A stretch of DNA of 64,000 nt from an uncultured Alphaproteobacteria bacterium. GTDB lineage: Bacteria > Pseudomonadota > Alphaproteobacteria > RF32 > CAG-239. Position 1 is the stretch's first letter. Every line of letters begins with the position of its first letter. Below the pieces are notes generated by a model. It was given only the letters and a program-made list of their open reading frames with translations, had not been told where the DNA came from and did not search any database. Shown in pieces: positions 5,061 through 57,061 of this stretch. The stretch lies in the NCBI GenBank assembly GCA_949297145.1, contig CASFQO010000013.1, positions 18,768 through 82,767 of the forward strand, given 5' to 3'. The translations under genes were made by a program, and so were the position numbers.

Positions 5061-5678
5061 TTAAAGATTATCTTTATTATCCGGTTGTTGTCCATCATGT
5101 GCTTTCCATTGGCACGGTTGTATTTCCATATTTGTAAATGTTGCCGTAAATGATGATTCTTCCGGACTGCAGGCATAAATTCCAAATGAAATCTTATCGG
5201 TTGCCTTATGCAAATGGCAAATTCTCATTTGCTTAAAATGTTTTCCATCCGACGAGTTCTCAATGCAAAAATCATTATTTCTCCGGCTTAAGCGGTACCA
5301 CATGGATTTAATTCCGGCTGCAATCTCGGTTGTGGCCCAATCTGAGTATCCGCCATTGGTTACCACACTGCCTAAATGCTGCATTTGCTCATTTTCATAT
5401 TCTATGGAGGCTTTTAGCCAATTTTCACTATCTAAATAAACAACTACTCCGCACTGGTCAAAGCGATGTTTGCTCGCAAATTCGGTCTTCACCACAAAAG
5501 AAAAAAAATTTTCGTCCGTTTCTTGTTGCAAAACCGGCGCATTATCATTTTGAAAGTTGTAATATGTCCTCTGCCATAAATCCGTATGTGGAAGTGTGGT
5601 TATTTCTATTTTCTGGTCAGAAACAGTGTATTGTTGCGGTTCTCTTATCCAAAACAGCTTATCTGATACAAATTGCAT
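5061..5678 (-). CDS. DUF1349-like (concanavalin-A-like lectin/glucanase fold) protein
   Basis: 205-aa ORF. LPHTDLWQRTYYNF...FDQCGVVVYLDSENWLKASIEYE...SVVTNGGYSDWA...MWYRLSRR matches my memory of the DUF1349 family. Confidence 0.6.
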   Translation of the reverse strand: MQFVSDKLFWIREPQQYTVSDQKIEITTLPHTDLWQRTYYNFQNDNAPVLQQETDENFFSFVVKTEFASKHRFDQCGVVVYLDSENWLKASIEYENEQMQHLGSVVTNGGYSDWATTEIAAGIKSMWYRLSRRNNDFCIENSSDGKHFKQMRICHLHKATDKISFGIYACSPEESSFTATFTNMEIQPCQWKAHDGQQPDNKDNL

Positions 5679-5835
5679 TTTAGCCTCTTTTCTTTAATAA
5701 TTTATATGGAGATTACCGCATATTCTTTAATTTTATCCTAATTCCAGAGCCATCTCTCTTTATTCCCAAATTTCCATTTAGCTATAAAATTATCTTGCTG
5801 TATCAAAAATATTTGCTAATTTTTTAAATAAATCC

Positions 5836-5866
5836 TTGACTTAGAGTACACTCTAAAGGTTACGAT
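5836..5866 (+). promoter_or_regulatory. MerR-style promoter/operator: TTGACT-19 bp-TACGAT with dyad TTAGAGT-AC-ACTCTAA in the spacer
   Basis: Read directly: cTTGACTtagagtacactctaaaggtTACGAT, 34 nt upstream of ATG 5900 (RBS AAGGAG at 5886-5891). A near-identical copy lies at 22950-22981 on the minus strand. Confidence 0.55.
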
Positions 5867-5899
5867 AAGCTGAAAATTGATTTTTAAGGAGTTGAAAAT

Positions 5900-8353
5900 A
5901 TGTTCGGATGCGCCGTTACCACTTCTTTTTTGGGAAGTCTTGCCGCTTTATTGCTCTTTTGCAGATATTGCGCATTTGCTTCTGTCGGTATGGGGTGGAA
6001 AATAACTTTCTTTATCTTATTTATGTTGATTGCTTGCTTACCGATGTTGGCGGAATATAACTTTGAAGAATATTTAGGCAAATATTATGTTGCCTATCGT
6101 TATGTGCTTTATTTCCTATTTATCACCATGGTGATATTGTTTAGTTTGACGGTTGTACGCGATATTATTTGGGGGATTTTGAGAATCTTTTCTACCGAGT
6201 TTAAGCCCCTTGCCTCACCTCACTTAAATGTTATTAACGTCATCACGATTGTTTTGGCTTTTGTTATCGGCGGGTTTTCTCTTTATGACGGCATGAAAGT
6301 TCCCGCTACAAAATATATCAGTGTTAGCGATCCCAAAATTTTACAAGATAAAAAAATTGTTTTGTTACCGGATTTACATCTGCACCGCGCCTTAATGCCG
6401 GCTAAGCTGCAGGGAATTGTGGCGCAAACCAATGCGCAAAATCCGGATGTTATTTTGCTTATCGGGGATATGATTGACGATGATATTTCTCGGGTTTCGG
6501 AACAATTGAAAATTTTAGGGGGATTAAAAGCTAAATACGGCGTTTATTTTGTTTCCGGAAACCATGAATTTTATCACGATTTTAACAAAACCTCTCAGGC
6601 GCTTCAAAACTTAGGTTTTAAACTTTTAGAAAATGACGGCGTGCAGATTACAGAAGATTTGTATTTGGGAGGCGTTCCCGATATTCACTCTCAATCTTTA
6701 AGTCATAAAAAGCCGGATTTGGATAAAACTTTTGCAAAGGCTTTGCCTCAGCAATATAAAATTTTGATGTCTCATACCCCGGCAAATTTTGAAAAAACAC
6801 CTTTTGATTTGGAAGTTTCCGGTCATACACACGGTGGACAAATCTTTCCGTTTGTCTTTTTTATTTATGCGCATGCTCCTTATGTTGCCGGCTGGTATGA
6901 CTTAAACGAGACGGCTAAACTTTATGTTTCGCGTGGAGCCGGACAATGGGGACCGCAAATGCGCTTTTTGGCACCGGCTGAAATTGCGGTTTTGACGTTG
7001 AAAGCAGGAAATTCTGCGGCTGAAAACAAAACTTCAGCTACTTCTGACCACCAAAAACCTAAGGCTAAGGTCCATTTTACCTCTGAATTGACACCGGAAG
7101 CTTTGGTCAACATCTACAACAAGGTTAACCAAAATATCTCGGGTAAAGTTGCGATTAAATGGCACTCCGGCGAGCCGCACGGACCGAATATTCTCCCTAT
7201 CCCTATGGTGAAAGCCTTGCAAGAATCTATACCGAACAGTAATTTGGTGGAAACAAATACCCTCTATGAAGGGGGACGCCATACGACCGAAAAACATCGT
7301 GAGACCTTGAAAATCAACGGTTGGGATTTTTGTAAAGTGGATATTATGGATGAATTCGGAACGGTGATGCTGCCGGTTAAAGGCGGAAAGCACTTTAAGG
7401 AAATGTCTATGGGAAAAGGCATTTTAGATTATGATTCCATGGTGGTGCTTACTCATTTTAAGGGGCATCCGATGGGTGGTTTCGGCGGTTCTATTAAAAA
7501 TATCGCCATCGGCAATGCGGACGGCAAAATCGGTAAGGCTATGGTGCATGGGGCTGATAAATTTAGTCTTTGGAACGCAACACAATCTCTGCTCATGGAA
7601 AATATGGTTGAATCGGCAAAGGCTACTTTGGATCATTTTGGTCCGAAAATTACTTATATCAATGTGTTAAGAAATATGTCTGTTGATTGCGACTGTATGG
7701 GGACGGCCGCCGCTAAAGTTAAAATCCGTGATTTGGGGATTTTGGCCTCTACCGATATCGTGGCCTTGGATCAGGCTTCTATTGATTTATTAATGAAGCA
7801 GCCTGAAACCGAACTTCATGACATCAAAGAGCGTATTTTAAGTCGTGAAGGATTGCATCAGTTGGATTATGCCGAACAAATGGGCTTGGGAACTCGTGAC
7901 TATGTGTTGATTAACCTTGATTCTTCTCCATCCGGTTATGAGCAAGCTCTCCAAAAAATTAAAAATAACGATGCTTCCGCTGTCTTAGTTAAGGATAACC
8001 TTATGGTGGCACAAGGGCATGGAAAAGGTATTAGACCATTGATGGATCTTCATGATAAGTGGCCGGAACTTTTAGAAGATGCTTCCTTAATTGATAAAGT
8101 TATCGGAAGAGCGGCGGCTTTTATTGCCATTGATGGAAAAGCGCGGACGGTTTATGGTGAATTGATGAGCCAGGAAGCCTTTGATTTGCTCCAAAAGAAT
8201 CATATTCCTGCAACTTATGGAAAATTGGTGCCGCAAATCTTAAATCGCCACAAAGATGGTCTATGTCCGATGGAAGAAACCGTTGCGCATACGGATAATC
8301 CGAAAAAAGCTGTTGAACTTTTAAAACAAAAGATGGAAACTTTGGGACTATAA
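5900..8353 (+). CDS. Membrane-anchored metallophosphoesterase fused to DUF362-like and DUF1893-like domains
   Basis: Single 817-aa ORF with RBS AAGGAG. Four N-terminal TM segments, then calcineurin-like motifs (LLPDLHLH, LIGDMIDD, VSGNHE, VSGHTHGGQ). A low-complexity linker is followed by a DUF362-like region (KWHSGEPHGPN...LTHFKGHPMGGFGGSIKNIAIG...VDCDCMG). The C-terminus is DUF1893-like (VIGRAAAFIAI...CPMEE). Confidence 0.75.
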   Translation: MFGCAVTTSFLGSLAALLLFCRYCAFASVGMGWKITFFILFMLIACLPMLAEYNFEEYLGKYYVAYRYVLYFLFITMVILFSLTVVRDIIWGILRIFSTEFKPLASPHLNVINVITIVLAFVIGGFSLYDGMKVPATKYISVSDPKILQDKKIVLLPDLHLHRALMPAKLQGIVAQTNAQNPDVILLIGDMIDDDISRVSEQLKILGGLKAKYGVYFVSGNHEFYHDFNKTSQALQNLGFKLLENDGVQITEDLYLGGVPDIHSQSLSHKKPDLDKTFAKALPQQYKILMSHTPANFEKTPFDLEVSGHTHGGQIFPFVFFIYAHAPYVAGWYDLNETAKLYVSRGAGQWGPQMRFLAPAEIAVLTLKAGNSAAENKTSATSDHQKPKAKVHFTSELTPEALVNIYNKVNQNISGKVAIKWHSGEPHGPNILPIPMVKALQESIPNSNLVETNTLYEGGRHTTEKHRETLKINGWDFCKVDIMDEFGTVMLPVKGGKHFKEMSMGKGILDYDSMVVLTHFKGHPMGGFGGSIKNIAIGNADGKIGKAMVHGADKFSLWNATQSLLMENMVESAKATLDHFGPKITYINVLRNMSVDCDCMGTAAAKVKIRDLGILASTDIVALDQASIDLLMKQPETELHDIKERILSREGLHQLDYAEQMGLGTRDYVLINLDSSPSGYEQALQKIKNNDASAVLVKDNLMVAQGHGKGIRPLMDLHDKWPELLEDASLIDKVIGRAAAFIAIDGKARTVYGELMSQEAFDLLQKNHIPATYGKLVPQILNRHKDGLCPMEETVAHTDNPKKAVELLKQKMETLGL

Positions 8354-8394: not shown

Positions 8395-8955
8395 ATGAAA
8401 AAAAGTATAGTCTTGATTATTGTCCTTCTGTTGGCGGTTTTACTTATTGTTTGGGGAGTTTTGATGATGAAGTCACAAGATGATGCTTTTCAGGTTACAA
8501 GTACGGATATTCAACCGAATACGATGCTTAGTCCGGCCCAAGTTTATAATGCGCACGGATGCAGCGGGCAAAATATTTCTCCTGAATTATCTTGGAGTAA
8601 TGCTCCAACCGGCACAAAAAGTTTTGCGATTATCTGTCATGATCCGGATGCGCCGCGTGAGCATGGATGGTATCATTGGCTGGTTGTCAATATTCCCTCT
8701 CACGTGTCTGAAATTAAAACTGGCGGCAATATCCCTGGCGCCCTCTCTACGATGACAGATTTTAAGGAAAATGCTTATGGCGGGGCTTGCCCTCCGGTTG
8801 GGCATGGGGTTCATCATTATAATTTTACGGTGTATGCCTTGAATACGGAAAAGCTTGATGTTTCCGCCCAAACAGCACCAACCGAAGTGGAAAAAGTGGT
8901 TAAACAACATGCTTTGGCTCAAGCAACCTTGACCGGTTTGTATGAGCGCAAATAA
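8395..8955 (+). CDS. YbhB/YbcL-family PEBP (phosphatidylethanolamine-binding-like) periplasmic protein
   Basis: ATG 8395 is preceded by GAGGAG. Signal/TM sequence MKKSIVLIIVLLLAVLLIV, then CHDPDAP...GWYHWLVVNIP...GPCPPVGHGVHHYNFTVYAL. Confidence 0.85.
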   Translation: MKKSIVLIIVLLLAVLLIVWGVLMMKSQDDAFQVTSTDIQPNTMLSPAQVYNAHGCSGQNISPELSWSNAPTGTKSFAIICHDPDAPREHGWYHWLVVNIPSHVSEIKTGGNIPGALSTMTDFKENAYGGACPPVGHGVHHYNFTVYALNTEKLDVSAQTAPTEVEKVVKQHALAQATLTGLYERK

Positions 8956-8982
8956 CTTGTTTCTTTACCTTAAAAAATCCTA

Positions 8983-9009
8983 AGAGCCTCGTTGTAGGCT
9001 CTTTTTTTA
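8983..9009 (+). terminator. Rho-independent terminator
   Basis: AGAGCCT-cgttgt-AGGCTCT stem followed by T7. Confidence 0.75.
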
Positions 9010-15636: not shown

Positions 15637-15999
15637 ATGAATAAAATTTTAGCTGTTTCTGCTCTTGTTTTAACTTTCGCTGTTGCTTCTAATGCTCAAG
15701 CTCAAATGAATATGGGTGGTGGTTTCCAAGGACCGACTATCGCTTCTACCACTGTTGCCGATGCTCTTAAAATGAATGATGATACTCCGGTTGTTTTGGT
15801 TGGTAACATTCAAAAGAATTTGGGTAATGAAAAATATCAATTCGCCGATAAAACTGGTACAATCGTTGTTGAAATTGATGATGAAGATTGGAGAGGCCAA
15901 GTTGTTAAACCGGAAAACACCGTTGAAATCAGAGGTGAAATCGATAAAGAATTGCTCGGCACACCTGAAGTTGACGTTGACTCCATTATCTTGAAATAA
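15637..15999 (+). CDS. ygiW: YgiW/YdeI-family periplasmic OB-fold (BOF) stress protein
   Basis: 120 aa with signal peptide ...[26 protein letters not shown]...[20 protein letters not shown], and RBS AGGAG. Confidence 0.85.
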
Positions 16000-22949: not shown

Positions 22950-22981
22950 AGTGTAACTCTTAGAGTTTGCTCTAAGTCAAG
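22950..22981 (-). promoter_or_regulatory. Second copy of the MerR-style promoter/operator: TTGACT-19 bp-TACACT
   Basis: The minus strand reads cTTGACTtagagcaaactctaagagtTACACT. 15 of 19 spacer positions match the copy at 5836-5866. It lies about 33 nt upstream of ATG 22917. Confidence 0.55.
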
Positions 22982-55887: not shown

Positions 55888-56709
55888 TTATTTTTCTTTT
55901 TTACCTTTCTTTGCGGCAATACGGCTTAACCATTCCGTCACGGTTAATTCTTGACTTTGCGGGGATAGACTTTCGTATGCTTTTTGTGCGTATGTTCTAT
56001 AATAGATTTTGTCTTGTGTTTGTTCTGTTTTTTGTTCAGCTTTGCAGACGGCGATTATGCTTTTATACAGGGCATTTTTGCTCTGAGATTTTATCTCTAA
56101 ATTCTTAAAACAAATTTCCGCTTTTGTTATTTCGGCGATGCGCTTTAATACGAAAGGTTTGGCTATTTCATCTGCCGTATTGAGGCAATAACATTGCTGT
56201 GCGTAGCTTTGACGGCGTACAACCAACTCTGTGCTGCTACCATTGGGTAGACGTGCTTGGTTGATATGGGGGTGTTTATATATATATTCAAACCACTCTG
56301 CCAATCTTTCTGAAGTGTACTTTTTATATTCCTTTCCCCTGTTTCCTACTTTATGAAATATTTTGGCACAATCTCTTGGTGTTAGCTCTCCGAATTGTTT
56401 TTCCGGCAAATTCTCCGGTTCTTCTTTTTCTGGACAATACTTACAATTTGCCCATTTTGCAAAGGCTTGGATAATTTCTTGACGATATTTTGAAGTGTTT
56501 AAGCAGTACATGATCTTGTTATTGACGCCCAATCTTTCTACAATAATCGGAAGCTTAATCCCTGATATCATACATATATTATCTTTCGGGCGTTCATACA
56601 GTTTTCTGAACAATCCATTCAACCGGTCTTGCTTTTTAAAACCTGACAGTTTTTTGCCATCCTCTGATTTGACATCATTCAATAAATGTTTGGTATCGCT
56701 TACAATCAA
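55888..56709 (-). CDS. Repeat-domain protein, downstream fragment (repeats 2 and 3)
   Basis: The 273-aa ORF is called from TTG 56709 and has no RBS. It contains two copies of a roughly 90-aa module that is also present in the upstream ORF. Confidence 0.55.
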   Translation of the reverse strand: MIVSDTKHLLNDVKSEDGKKLSGFKKQDRLNGLFRKLYERPKDNICMISGIKLPIIVERLGVNNKIMYCLNTSKYRQEIIQAFAKWANCKYCPEKEEPENLPEKQFGELTPRDCAKIFHKVGNRGKEYKKYTSERLAEWFEYIYKHPHINQARLPNGSSTELVVRRQSYAQQCYCLNTADEIAKPFVLKRIAEITKAEICFKNLEIKSQSKNALYKSIIAVCKAEQKTEQTQDKIYYRTYAQKAYESLSPQSQELTVTEWLSRIAAKKGKKEK

Positions 56710-57061
56710 CTCTCCTGTTTTTTTTCGCTTCCGGGCGCCCTAAACGGCATGTAATTTTCATTTGTTTGGCAAACGCTTCTAATATTTCTTCTTGAGGGGC
56801 CTCCGATGTATTTAGATAATAGGCGGAGGCTCTGCCTTCTTGTCTATGGTGCACGACAATCGGAACGACTTTTCCATCCGACAAAGTACATTTGTTCTTT
56901 TCTTTATTTTGATATAATTTCGCAAACAAAAAACGCAGATGACCACGTTTTTCGCTCTGCGTTAGTTTTTCTCCGTTTTCATTTCTGATGTTATCAAAAA
57001 ATTTAACGGCTTCGGATGCGTTTAATTCGCCTTCTTGTTTTATCTCAACGTTCTCTGTCAT
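56675..57061 (-). CDS. Repeat-domain protein, upstream fragment (repeat 1)
   Basis: 128-aa ORF with a good promoter and an AAAGG RBS. It ends 35 nt inside the next ORF, in another frame, just after an A8 tract. Confidence 0.55.
   Translation of the reverse strand: MTENVEIKQEGELNASEAVKFFDNIRNENGEKLTQSEKRGHLRFLFAKLYQNKEKNKCTLSDGKVVPIVVHHRQEGRASAYYLNTSEAPQEEILEAFAKQMKITCRLGRPEAKKNRRVDCKRYQTFIE
56718..56725 (-). repeat. A8 homopolymer (coding strand) at the junction of the two repeat-protein ORFs
   Basis: GAAGCGAAAAAAAACAGGAGAGTTGATTGTAAGC. Removing one A joins ...RPEAKK to TGELIVSDTKHLL... in a single frame. Confidence 0.9.

Follow-up and report, generated by a model that had tools for sequence, protein, structure and literature searches.

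The window, i.e., the whole stretch of 64,000 nucleotides analysed here, harbors two distant operons encoding envelope proteins, and comparison with other genomes strongly supports the view that the sites preceding them are genuine MerR-type promoters, conserved across species and belonging to the NmlR/AdhR branch, which define a small envelope-protein regulon within the window. In particular, it is very likely that both sites are sigma-70-type promoters dependent on a MerR regulator of the NmlR/AdhR type.

The mechanism itself is a known one, that of the textbook MerR type. With an over-long spacer of 19 bp, the -35 hexamer would be out of phase with the -10; a dimer of the regulator would sit on the TTAGAG-N4-CTCTAA dyad and, once activated, would untwist and bend the DNA, making both hexamers usable by RNA polymerase. 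The switch would most likely be the modification of a hinge cysteine by a reactive electrophile (aldehyde, dicarbonyl, nitrosative or oxidative species), and the regulator would be encoded elsewhere in the genome, acting in trans. If the same regulator acts at both sites, operons 1 and 2 would be co-induced, and the presence of NmlR/AdhR-type sites at both promoters suggests that the two envelope operons probably share one chemical-stress response. Two unrelated and poorly characterised envelope operons would thus be tied to one regulator class of known mechanism, and a testable induction condition (reactive electrophiles) would be available for DUF362, DUF1893, the PEBP protein, and an unannotated family.

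Architecture of the Two Promoters

The coordinates of the two promoters and of the genes that follow them are reported in Table 1. Site 1, on the forward strand, reads cTTGACT-tagagtacactctaaaggt-TACGAT, with a spacer of 19 nt (5842-5860); site 2, on the reverse strand, reads cTTGACT-tagagcaaactctaagagt-TACACT, also with a spacer of 19 nt (22974-22956). The re-reading of both sites confirmed what an earlier note on this DNA had described, namely the TTGACT and TACGAT hexamers of site 1 with their 19-bp spacer and internal dyad, the second copy on the minus strand at 22950-22981 (where the -35, the spacer, and the -10 are all located), and the identity of the two spacers at 15 of 19 positions. 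At both sites the hexamers are 19 bp apart, within the 19-20 bp of MerR-type promoters, and an inverted repeat is embedded in the spacer or overlaps it, as in these promoters; each dyad starts with the last base of the -35 and has its centre 7.5 bp after it. The distance from the end of the -10 to the ATG of the first gene is 34 nt in both cases, in the correct orientation, and a good Shine-Dalgarno sequence is located just ahead of the ATG of each operon's first gene. The transcription start of promoter 1 is predicted to lie near 5872-5874. A standard promoter scan (16-18-bp spacers) of both intergenic regions disclosed nothing better than these two sites. Lastly, when up to two mismatches are allowed, the window contains the core TTGACTTAGAGNNNACTCTAA exactly twice, whereas 100 dinucleotide-preserving shuffles yielded no match at all.

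Table 1. Coordinates of the promoters, operators, and genes of the two operons in the window.
Feature	Position	Strand	Remarks
-35 TTGACT, promoter 1	5836-5841	+	C at 5835 precedes
-10 TACGAT, promoter 1	5861-5866	+	19 bp past -35
Operator dyad TTAGAG-TACA-CTCTAA, site 1	5841-5856 (TTAGAG 5841-5846, CTCTAA 5851-5856)	.	fits YYNGAGNNNNCTCNRR
Shine-Dalgarno AAGGAG, first gene of operon 1	5886-5891	+	
Operon 1, first gene: 817-aa membrane protein, Metallophos + DUF362 + DUF1893 (TM1506)	5900-8353	+	family matches
Operon 1, second gene: PEBP / YbhB-YbcL family, N-terminal hydrophobic leader	8395-8955	+	
Terminator-like hairpin + T-run, end of operon 1	8982-9003	+	
-35 TTGACT, promoter 2	22980-22975	-	
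-10 TACACT, promoter 2	22955-22950	-	19 bp past -35
Operator dyad TTAGAG-CAAA-CTCTAA, site 2	22960-22975	.	fits YYNGAGNNNNCTCNRR
Operon 2, first gene: 163-aa protein, no Pfam or NCBIfam match	22917-22426	-	two membrane helices (by eye)
Operon 2, second gene: 282 aa, two CMD (AhpD-like) domains	22439-21591	-	signal-peptide-like N-terminus (by eye)
Terminator of operon 2: 10-bp-stem hairpin, then TTTT	21586-21561	-	common to convergent gene

Distribution of the Motif in Other Genomes

An exact-pattern scan of the core motif, carried out on one genome per prokaryote species, retrieved at least 120 loci, which were examined as 8-kb loci. Among the matches listed, the motif-bearing species belong to about ten phyla, including Bacillota, Pseudomonadota, Actinomycetota, Chloroflexota, Cyanobacteriota (with Gastranaerophilales), Fusobacteriota, Elusimicrobiota, Verrucomicrobiota, Armatimonadota, and others. 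The analysis of 120 loci among these matches revealed that TAnnnT is located exactly 19 bp past TTGACT in 107 of them, and that the positions left unfixed by the pattern are conserved as well (T26 in 98%, A27 in 92%, and T31 in 95% of the loci); a C directly precedes TTGACT in 66% of the loci and at both window sites. In 86 of the same 120 loci, a small MerR-like ORF is present inside the 8-kb locus, mostly beside the site. An HMM re-search of the loci returned 88 MerR-like ORFs, again among the matches listed; in the loci bearing these hits, the ORF is the first gene downstream (hence autoregulated) in 28, divergent in 28, on the same strand and ending just upstream in 17, further down the operon in 5, and elsewhere in the locus in 8.

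The recurrence of a -10 at a fixed distance and of adjoining MerR genes across phyla rules out a repeat unrelated to promoters, which the earlier note had named among the findings that would overturn its reading of the site as a MerR-type promoter/operator; the comparison supports that reading and ties the site to one MerR lineage.

A variant arrangement was observed in seven loci of Mycobacterium/Actinomycetota (L008, L025, L080, L085, L086, L112, and L120), in which a second TTGACT replaces the TAnnnT 19 bp downstream. In five of them (L025, L085, L086, L112, and L120), the divergent MerR bears a C-terminal cluster, CTCPSI(D/E)xCTCG; judging from this cluster, these regulators possibly represent a different branch acting on the same dyad and sensing through a metal or redox cluster.

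Operator Consensus and Regulator Class

The operator consensus reported for the NmlR of Haemophilus influenzae (HiNmlR) is 8'-YYNGAGNNNNCTCNRR-8, in which the G-C pair at position 5 is a distinctive contact, and the DNA-reading residues of the protein are Tyr17, Arg20, Phe21, and Lys24 (PMC5001606). Swapping G and C at position 5 lowers the affinity of HiNmlR by a factor of 10 to 190. Both window sites fit this consensus exactly (TT-A-GAG-TACA-CTC-T-AA and TT-A-GAG-CAAA-CTC-T-AA). Three matches to YYNGAGNNNNCTCNRR exist in the window, versus 0.25 expected; the third one (CTTGAGGGGCCTCCGA, 56791-56806) lies inside an ORF (56675-57061, minus strand), has no -35/-10, and was judged to be a chance match.

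The regulators adjoining the operator in other genomes point to the same class. The regulator of a gut alphaproteobacterium (locus L106) has its best matches in the H. influenzae NmlR structures 5D8C, 5D90, and 5E01 (E = 2e-31), followed by 3GPV and 3GP4, with CueR, MtaN, and TipA far weaker. The NCBIfam model for NmlR (NF041849) is the top one for this and two other operator-adjacent regulators, a diverse set, with 99-151 bits, all three falling below its equivalog cut-off of 175 bits; the CueR, ZntR, CadR, MerR, and SoxR models score 38-63 bits on the linked regulators (cut-offs 117-168).

The conservation of the HiNmlR residues was counted in 74 operator-adjacent MerR regulators taken from the matches listed. 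Arg20 is conserved in all of them (74/74), Phe21 is Y/F in 73/74, Lys24 is K/R in 68/74, and Tyr17 is H/Y in 63/74. As for the cysteines, a counterpart of Cys54 is present in 28/74, including the three gut-alphaproteobacterial regulators of the set (3/3), and Cys71 is not kept. Since the remaining 46 of these 74 regulators have no Cys54 equivalent, the operator type alone leaves the signal unfixed. The hinge cysteine, which is Cys54 in HiNmlR and Cys52 in AdhR, occurs in an IECLK context in every gut-alphaproteobacterial regulator examined, that is, in those of L106, L108, and L115, in eight further homologues, and in the P0095 cluster; the gut-alphaproteobacterial regulators are small, have a single cysteine, and lack both a C-terminal metal loop and the SoxR cluster.

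On the basis of these sequences, the regulator lineage is NmlR/AdhR-like, though not the NmlR equivalog, and broader than the cysteine-bearing clade of a 2016 review, according to which the clade comprises mainly Gram-positives, plus Neisseria and a few Pasteurellaceae (PMC4776306). Operators of the NmlR/AdhR type occur, in fact, in many Gram-negative and other phyla. CueR, ZntR, and SoxR had been named as examples in the earlier note; the linked regulators are not of these types, being closest to NmlR and having neither a metal site nor a SoxR cluster.

The Two Operons and Their Counterparts in Other Genomes

Operon 1. The family matches agree with the previous description of the genes behind the first copy of the motif, i.e., a metallophosphoesterase-DUF362-DUF1893 fusion and a PEBP gene. 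The 817-aa fusion protein has an N-terminal membrane segment (judged by eye), and its orthologue in L052 (79% amino acid identity) is located behind the same operator. Parts of the fusion also recur under the motif: the membrane phosphoesterase half is motif-driven in L106, L014 (where it is fused to a cupin), L115, and L055, and the DUF362 part in L022, L064, L021, and L057.

In an Elusimicrobiaceae MAG (L023), a DUF362-type ORF located 1973-1022 nt upstream of the motif shares 64% identity with residues 362-674 of the window's 817-aa fusion, a value unusually high between phyla, which suggests a horizontal transfer of the DUF362 module. A DUF1349 gene of the window (5061-5678, minus strand) contains a variable segment (5312-5476): two metagenome runs contain an additional contig, differing in depth, that has the same flanks, with 163 bases replaced by 166 others, and this divergent contig probably belongs to a co-resident relative or strain.

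Operon 2. The two genes of this operon overlap by 14 nt. The family of the 163-aa protein is small (40 proteins), and a homologue sharing 47% identity opens the operon that follows this operator in L108, where it adjoins a MerR gene. Homologues of the CMD gene are motif-driven in many loci, and each of the three informative targets of the window has homologues under the motif in other genomes. The neighborhood of the 163-aa gene is maintained in L143 and L145, where it is flanked on its two sides by a CNNM transporter and an NAD synthase; the CMD gene follows the 163-aa gene in the window and in L143 and is absent from L145, which indicates that the second gene of operon 2 was gained or lost between close species.

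Regulon content. The first non-regulator genes behind the motif were tallied in 91 loci taken from the matches listed. Within this set, the most represented family is that of the aldo-keto reductases (21 of 91 loci), followed by short-chain dehydrogenases (SDRs; 14), CMD proteins (11), PNPOx-like proteins (5), Fe-alcohol dehydrogenases, DXS paralogues, and FMN reductases (4 each), cupins (3), and DUF362 proteins and flavodoxins (PF12682) (2 each). YraC, a CMD protein, is an experimentally known target of AdhR (PMC4776306), and the CMD gene of operon 2 belongs to the YraC family; adhC, estD, and adhA are not among the motif-driven genes of the window. Other contigs of gut Alphaproteobacteria have the regulator gene facing away from either a membrane Metallophos gene or an operon of a DXS paralogue and a cupin, and in the three divergent loci that were scanned (L157, L167, and L169) an operator of this type lies between the genes.

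A full-length DXP synthase paralogue, in some loci followed by a small cupin, was observed in L009, L028, L106, L069, L157, and L177-L187. In gut Alphaproteobacteria and Gastranaerophilales, this paralogue repeatedly occupies the first place behind the operator, although a thiamine-dependent enzyme is a puzzling member of an electrophile regulon.

Nature of the signal. Judging from the regulator family, reactive electrophiles sensed via the hinge cysteine are the putative effector. It might be argued that the promoters are indeed MerR-dependent and that the signal is instead a metabolite, or a redox change perceived through a cysteine-free mechanism, given that the Cys54 equivalent is lacking in 46 of the 74 adjacent regulators among the matches listed, that the mycobacterial regulators bear a C-terminal Cys cluster in its place, and that the genes targeted in the window encode functionally uncharacterised envelope proteins rather than aldehyde dehydrogenases. 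Such a signal appears unlikely, however, in view of the IECLK hinge cysteine of all the gut-alphaproteobacterial regulators examined and of the pooled regulon, dominated (among the matches listed) by carbonyl/quinone reductases and CMD proteins.

A broader reading, which may be entertained as a tentative and rather doubtful extension of the electrophile-responsive NmlR/AdhR-type regulon, is that the operator belongs to a nearly invariant, cross-phylum stress regulon extending far beyond the described NmlR clade, which would have been rewired to the envelope in gut Alphaproteobacteria. Its basis is that at least 120 species share all 18 bases specified in the motif, together with the fact that most of the regulators (46/74, among the matches listed) are without the "absolutely conserved" cysteine. 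If this were true, the rewired targets would comprise a DXS paralogue, a PEBP of the periplasm, a membrane protein with two helices, a tandem AhpD/CMD protein that is exported, and membrane metallophosphoesterases fused either to DUF362 and DUF1893 or to a cupin; these functionally uncharacterised families would thereby be placed in a physiological context for the first time, under an unlinked global regulator.

Conservation of the Sites and Search for the Regulator

The 31-bp block embedding promoter and operator was compared in orthologous loci. For site 2, the block is identical in L143 (31/31; 163-aa protein 83% identical, flanks diverged) and nearly so in L145 (28/31; protein 74% identical, flanks unalignable); for site 1, it is maintained at 30/31 positions in L052, where the fusion protein is 79% identical and the flanks have diverged. 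The persistence of the block in the face of diverging flanks argues that the sites are still bound. In the orthologous loci L143-L146, no MerR gene was found up to a distance of about 4 kb, nor was one found in the 8-kb locus of L052, and it therefore seems that an unlinked regulator is the rule in this subclade.

The window itself was searched by tblastn with six MerR queries, with no significant result, and by scanning all its stop-to-stop ORFs of at least 40 aa with an HMM of the 74 operator-adjacent MerRs, whose best match had E = 0.007. This match (15776-15991) is a coiled-coil-only alignment in a frame overlapping a longer ORF and was regarded as due to chance. Both searches thus agree with the earlier note as to the lack of a MerR-like gene in the window.

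Metagenomes are rich in close homologues of the regulator of L106 (967 proteins at E <= 1e-20), and the few examined are of gut-type Alphaproteobacteria. Eight of them (P0044, P0105, P0119, P0064, P0260, P0201, P0262, and P0261) were considered as the organism's own regulator, and none could be tied to this genome: seven come from samples that differ from those carrying the window's exact proteins, the exception being P0261, which shares the single sample ERZ17292905, and the P0105 and P0119 loci have a tetranucleotide correlation with the window of r = 0.88-0.90, versus 0.98 within the window. The candidate that comes closest is the P0095 cluster (147 or 145 aa, MIECLKATGM), from a relative of similar composition (r = 0.96-0.97); its gene is divergent there from a DXS paralogue and is not demonstrably from this genome. 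The organism, an uncultured gut alphaproteobacterium, is present in the metagenome series ERZ16268095-16268244 / ERR10610492-10610631 and a few others, with depths of 28.9, 13.1, 13.9, and ~7 in the four best runs. The search for RNA evidence retrieved a single run, of unspecified kind, that carries the sequence of a relative. Among the metagenome contigs aligned to the L106 merR gene, none displayed the window's depth pattern across four runs; the DNA identity between orthologues being only 73-76%, this alignment is not sensitive enough.

These results bear on whether the two sites are orphan operators, i.e., whether the regulator has been lost from the genome and the sites persist as weak constitutive promoters or relics. 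The missing regulator gene, both in the window and around the orthologous loci, and the eight candidates without a tie to this organism, would fit such a loss. The 31-bp block, on the other hand, is nearly unchanged between species whose proteins are 74-83% identical and whose flanks are unalignable, and close regulator homologues are as numerous as reported above; a loss of the regulator is thus very unlikely, and a regulator encoded elsewhere in the genome is preferred.

In a related species (L181, 9427-12438, and L183, 4243-7324), a defence-like island adjoins the regulator locus. It encodes KwaA together with a restriction enzyme of the EcoO109I type, and also a protein of 414 aa in which a MerR-HTH and a DNA-methylase domain are combined.

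Comparison with Known MerR-Family Systems

Canonical MerR-family promoters. In the Tn501 PmerT promoter and in the E. coli PcopA/CueR and PzntA/ZntR systems, the spacer is 19-20 bp long, the centre of the dyad lies about 7-8 bp past the -35, and activation takes place by DNA distortion (PMC5045206, PMC5001606). The window sites have the same spacer-centred geometry, and differ in the sequence of the half-sites and in the effector class, which would not be metals; the linked regulators, unlike the canonical metal-sensing MerRs, are without the metal-binding loop. The shared 19-bp-spacer architecture could also be taken as a hint that the two operons form a metal- or superoxide-sensing regulon of the CueR, ZntR, MerR or SoxR type. 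This is highly improbable: the linked regulators score far lower on the CueR, ZntR, CadR, MerR, and SoxR models than on that of NmlR, those of gut Alphaproteobacteria contain just one cysteine and lack a metal loop at the C-terminus, no metal pump or chaperone is present among the targets in the window and in the matches listed, and the G-C at position 5 of the dyad is an NmlR-type signature.

The idea that the motif is a dispersed repeat or a chance similarity devoid of promoter function, to which only its occurring twice would lend itself, has a practically negligible probability, since both copies are 34 nt ahead of a first-gene start codon in the right orientation, none is expected by chance (0 in 100 shuffles), the fixed-distance -10 and the adjoining MerR genes recur across phyla, and the sole other consensus match (56791) is inside an ORF and has no hexamers.

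H. influenzae NmlR. A close counterpart of the two sites is the PadhC-estD/nmlR system of H. influenzae NmlR (HI_0186), which has the same consensus YYNGAGNNNNCTCNRR, with G-C at position 5 (PMC5001606). The linked regulators keep R20, Y/F21, and K24 and, in gut Alphaproteobacteria, the Cys54 equivalent; the Cys71 equivalent, in contrast, is absent. The promoter layout differs. H. influenzae has a pair of divergent promoters that overlap, with their -35 elements within the dyad (PMC5001606), whereas in the window the dyad is in the spacer, with a one-base overlap with the -35, and there is no divergent regulator gene. The central bases of the window dyads are TACA and CAAA, so that the -35 is not embedded in the centre of the repeat as it is in H. 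influenzae and Neisseria. Moreover, neither adhC nor estD is among the window targets.

B. subtilis AdhR. According to Nguyen et al. (2009), the inverted repeat of B. subtilis AdhR reportedly lies between the -35 and the -10, as it does in the window. AdhR (YraB) is a small MerR protein that lacks a sensor domain and in which one cysteine, Cys52, is essential; formaldehyde and methylglyoxal act as inducers, and its regulon (adhA-yraA, yraC) includes a CMD-family protein, YraC, like the one encoded by the second gene of operon 2 (PMC4776306). Unlike in the AdhR regulon, the motif in the window precedes neither a thiol-dependent formaldehyde dehydrogenase gene nor one of the DJ-1/PfpI type, and the window organism, in contrast to B. 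subtilis, is a Gram-negative gut alphaproteobacterium. FtsR and GloR were also considered as relatives of the operator system and turned out to be unrelated to it.
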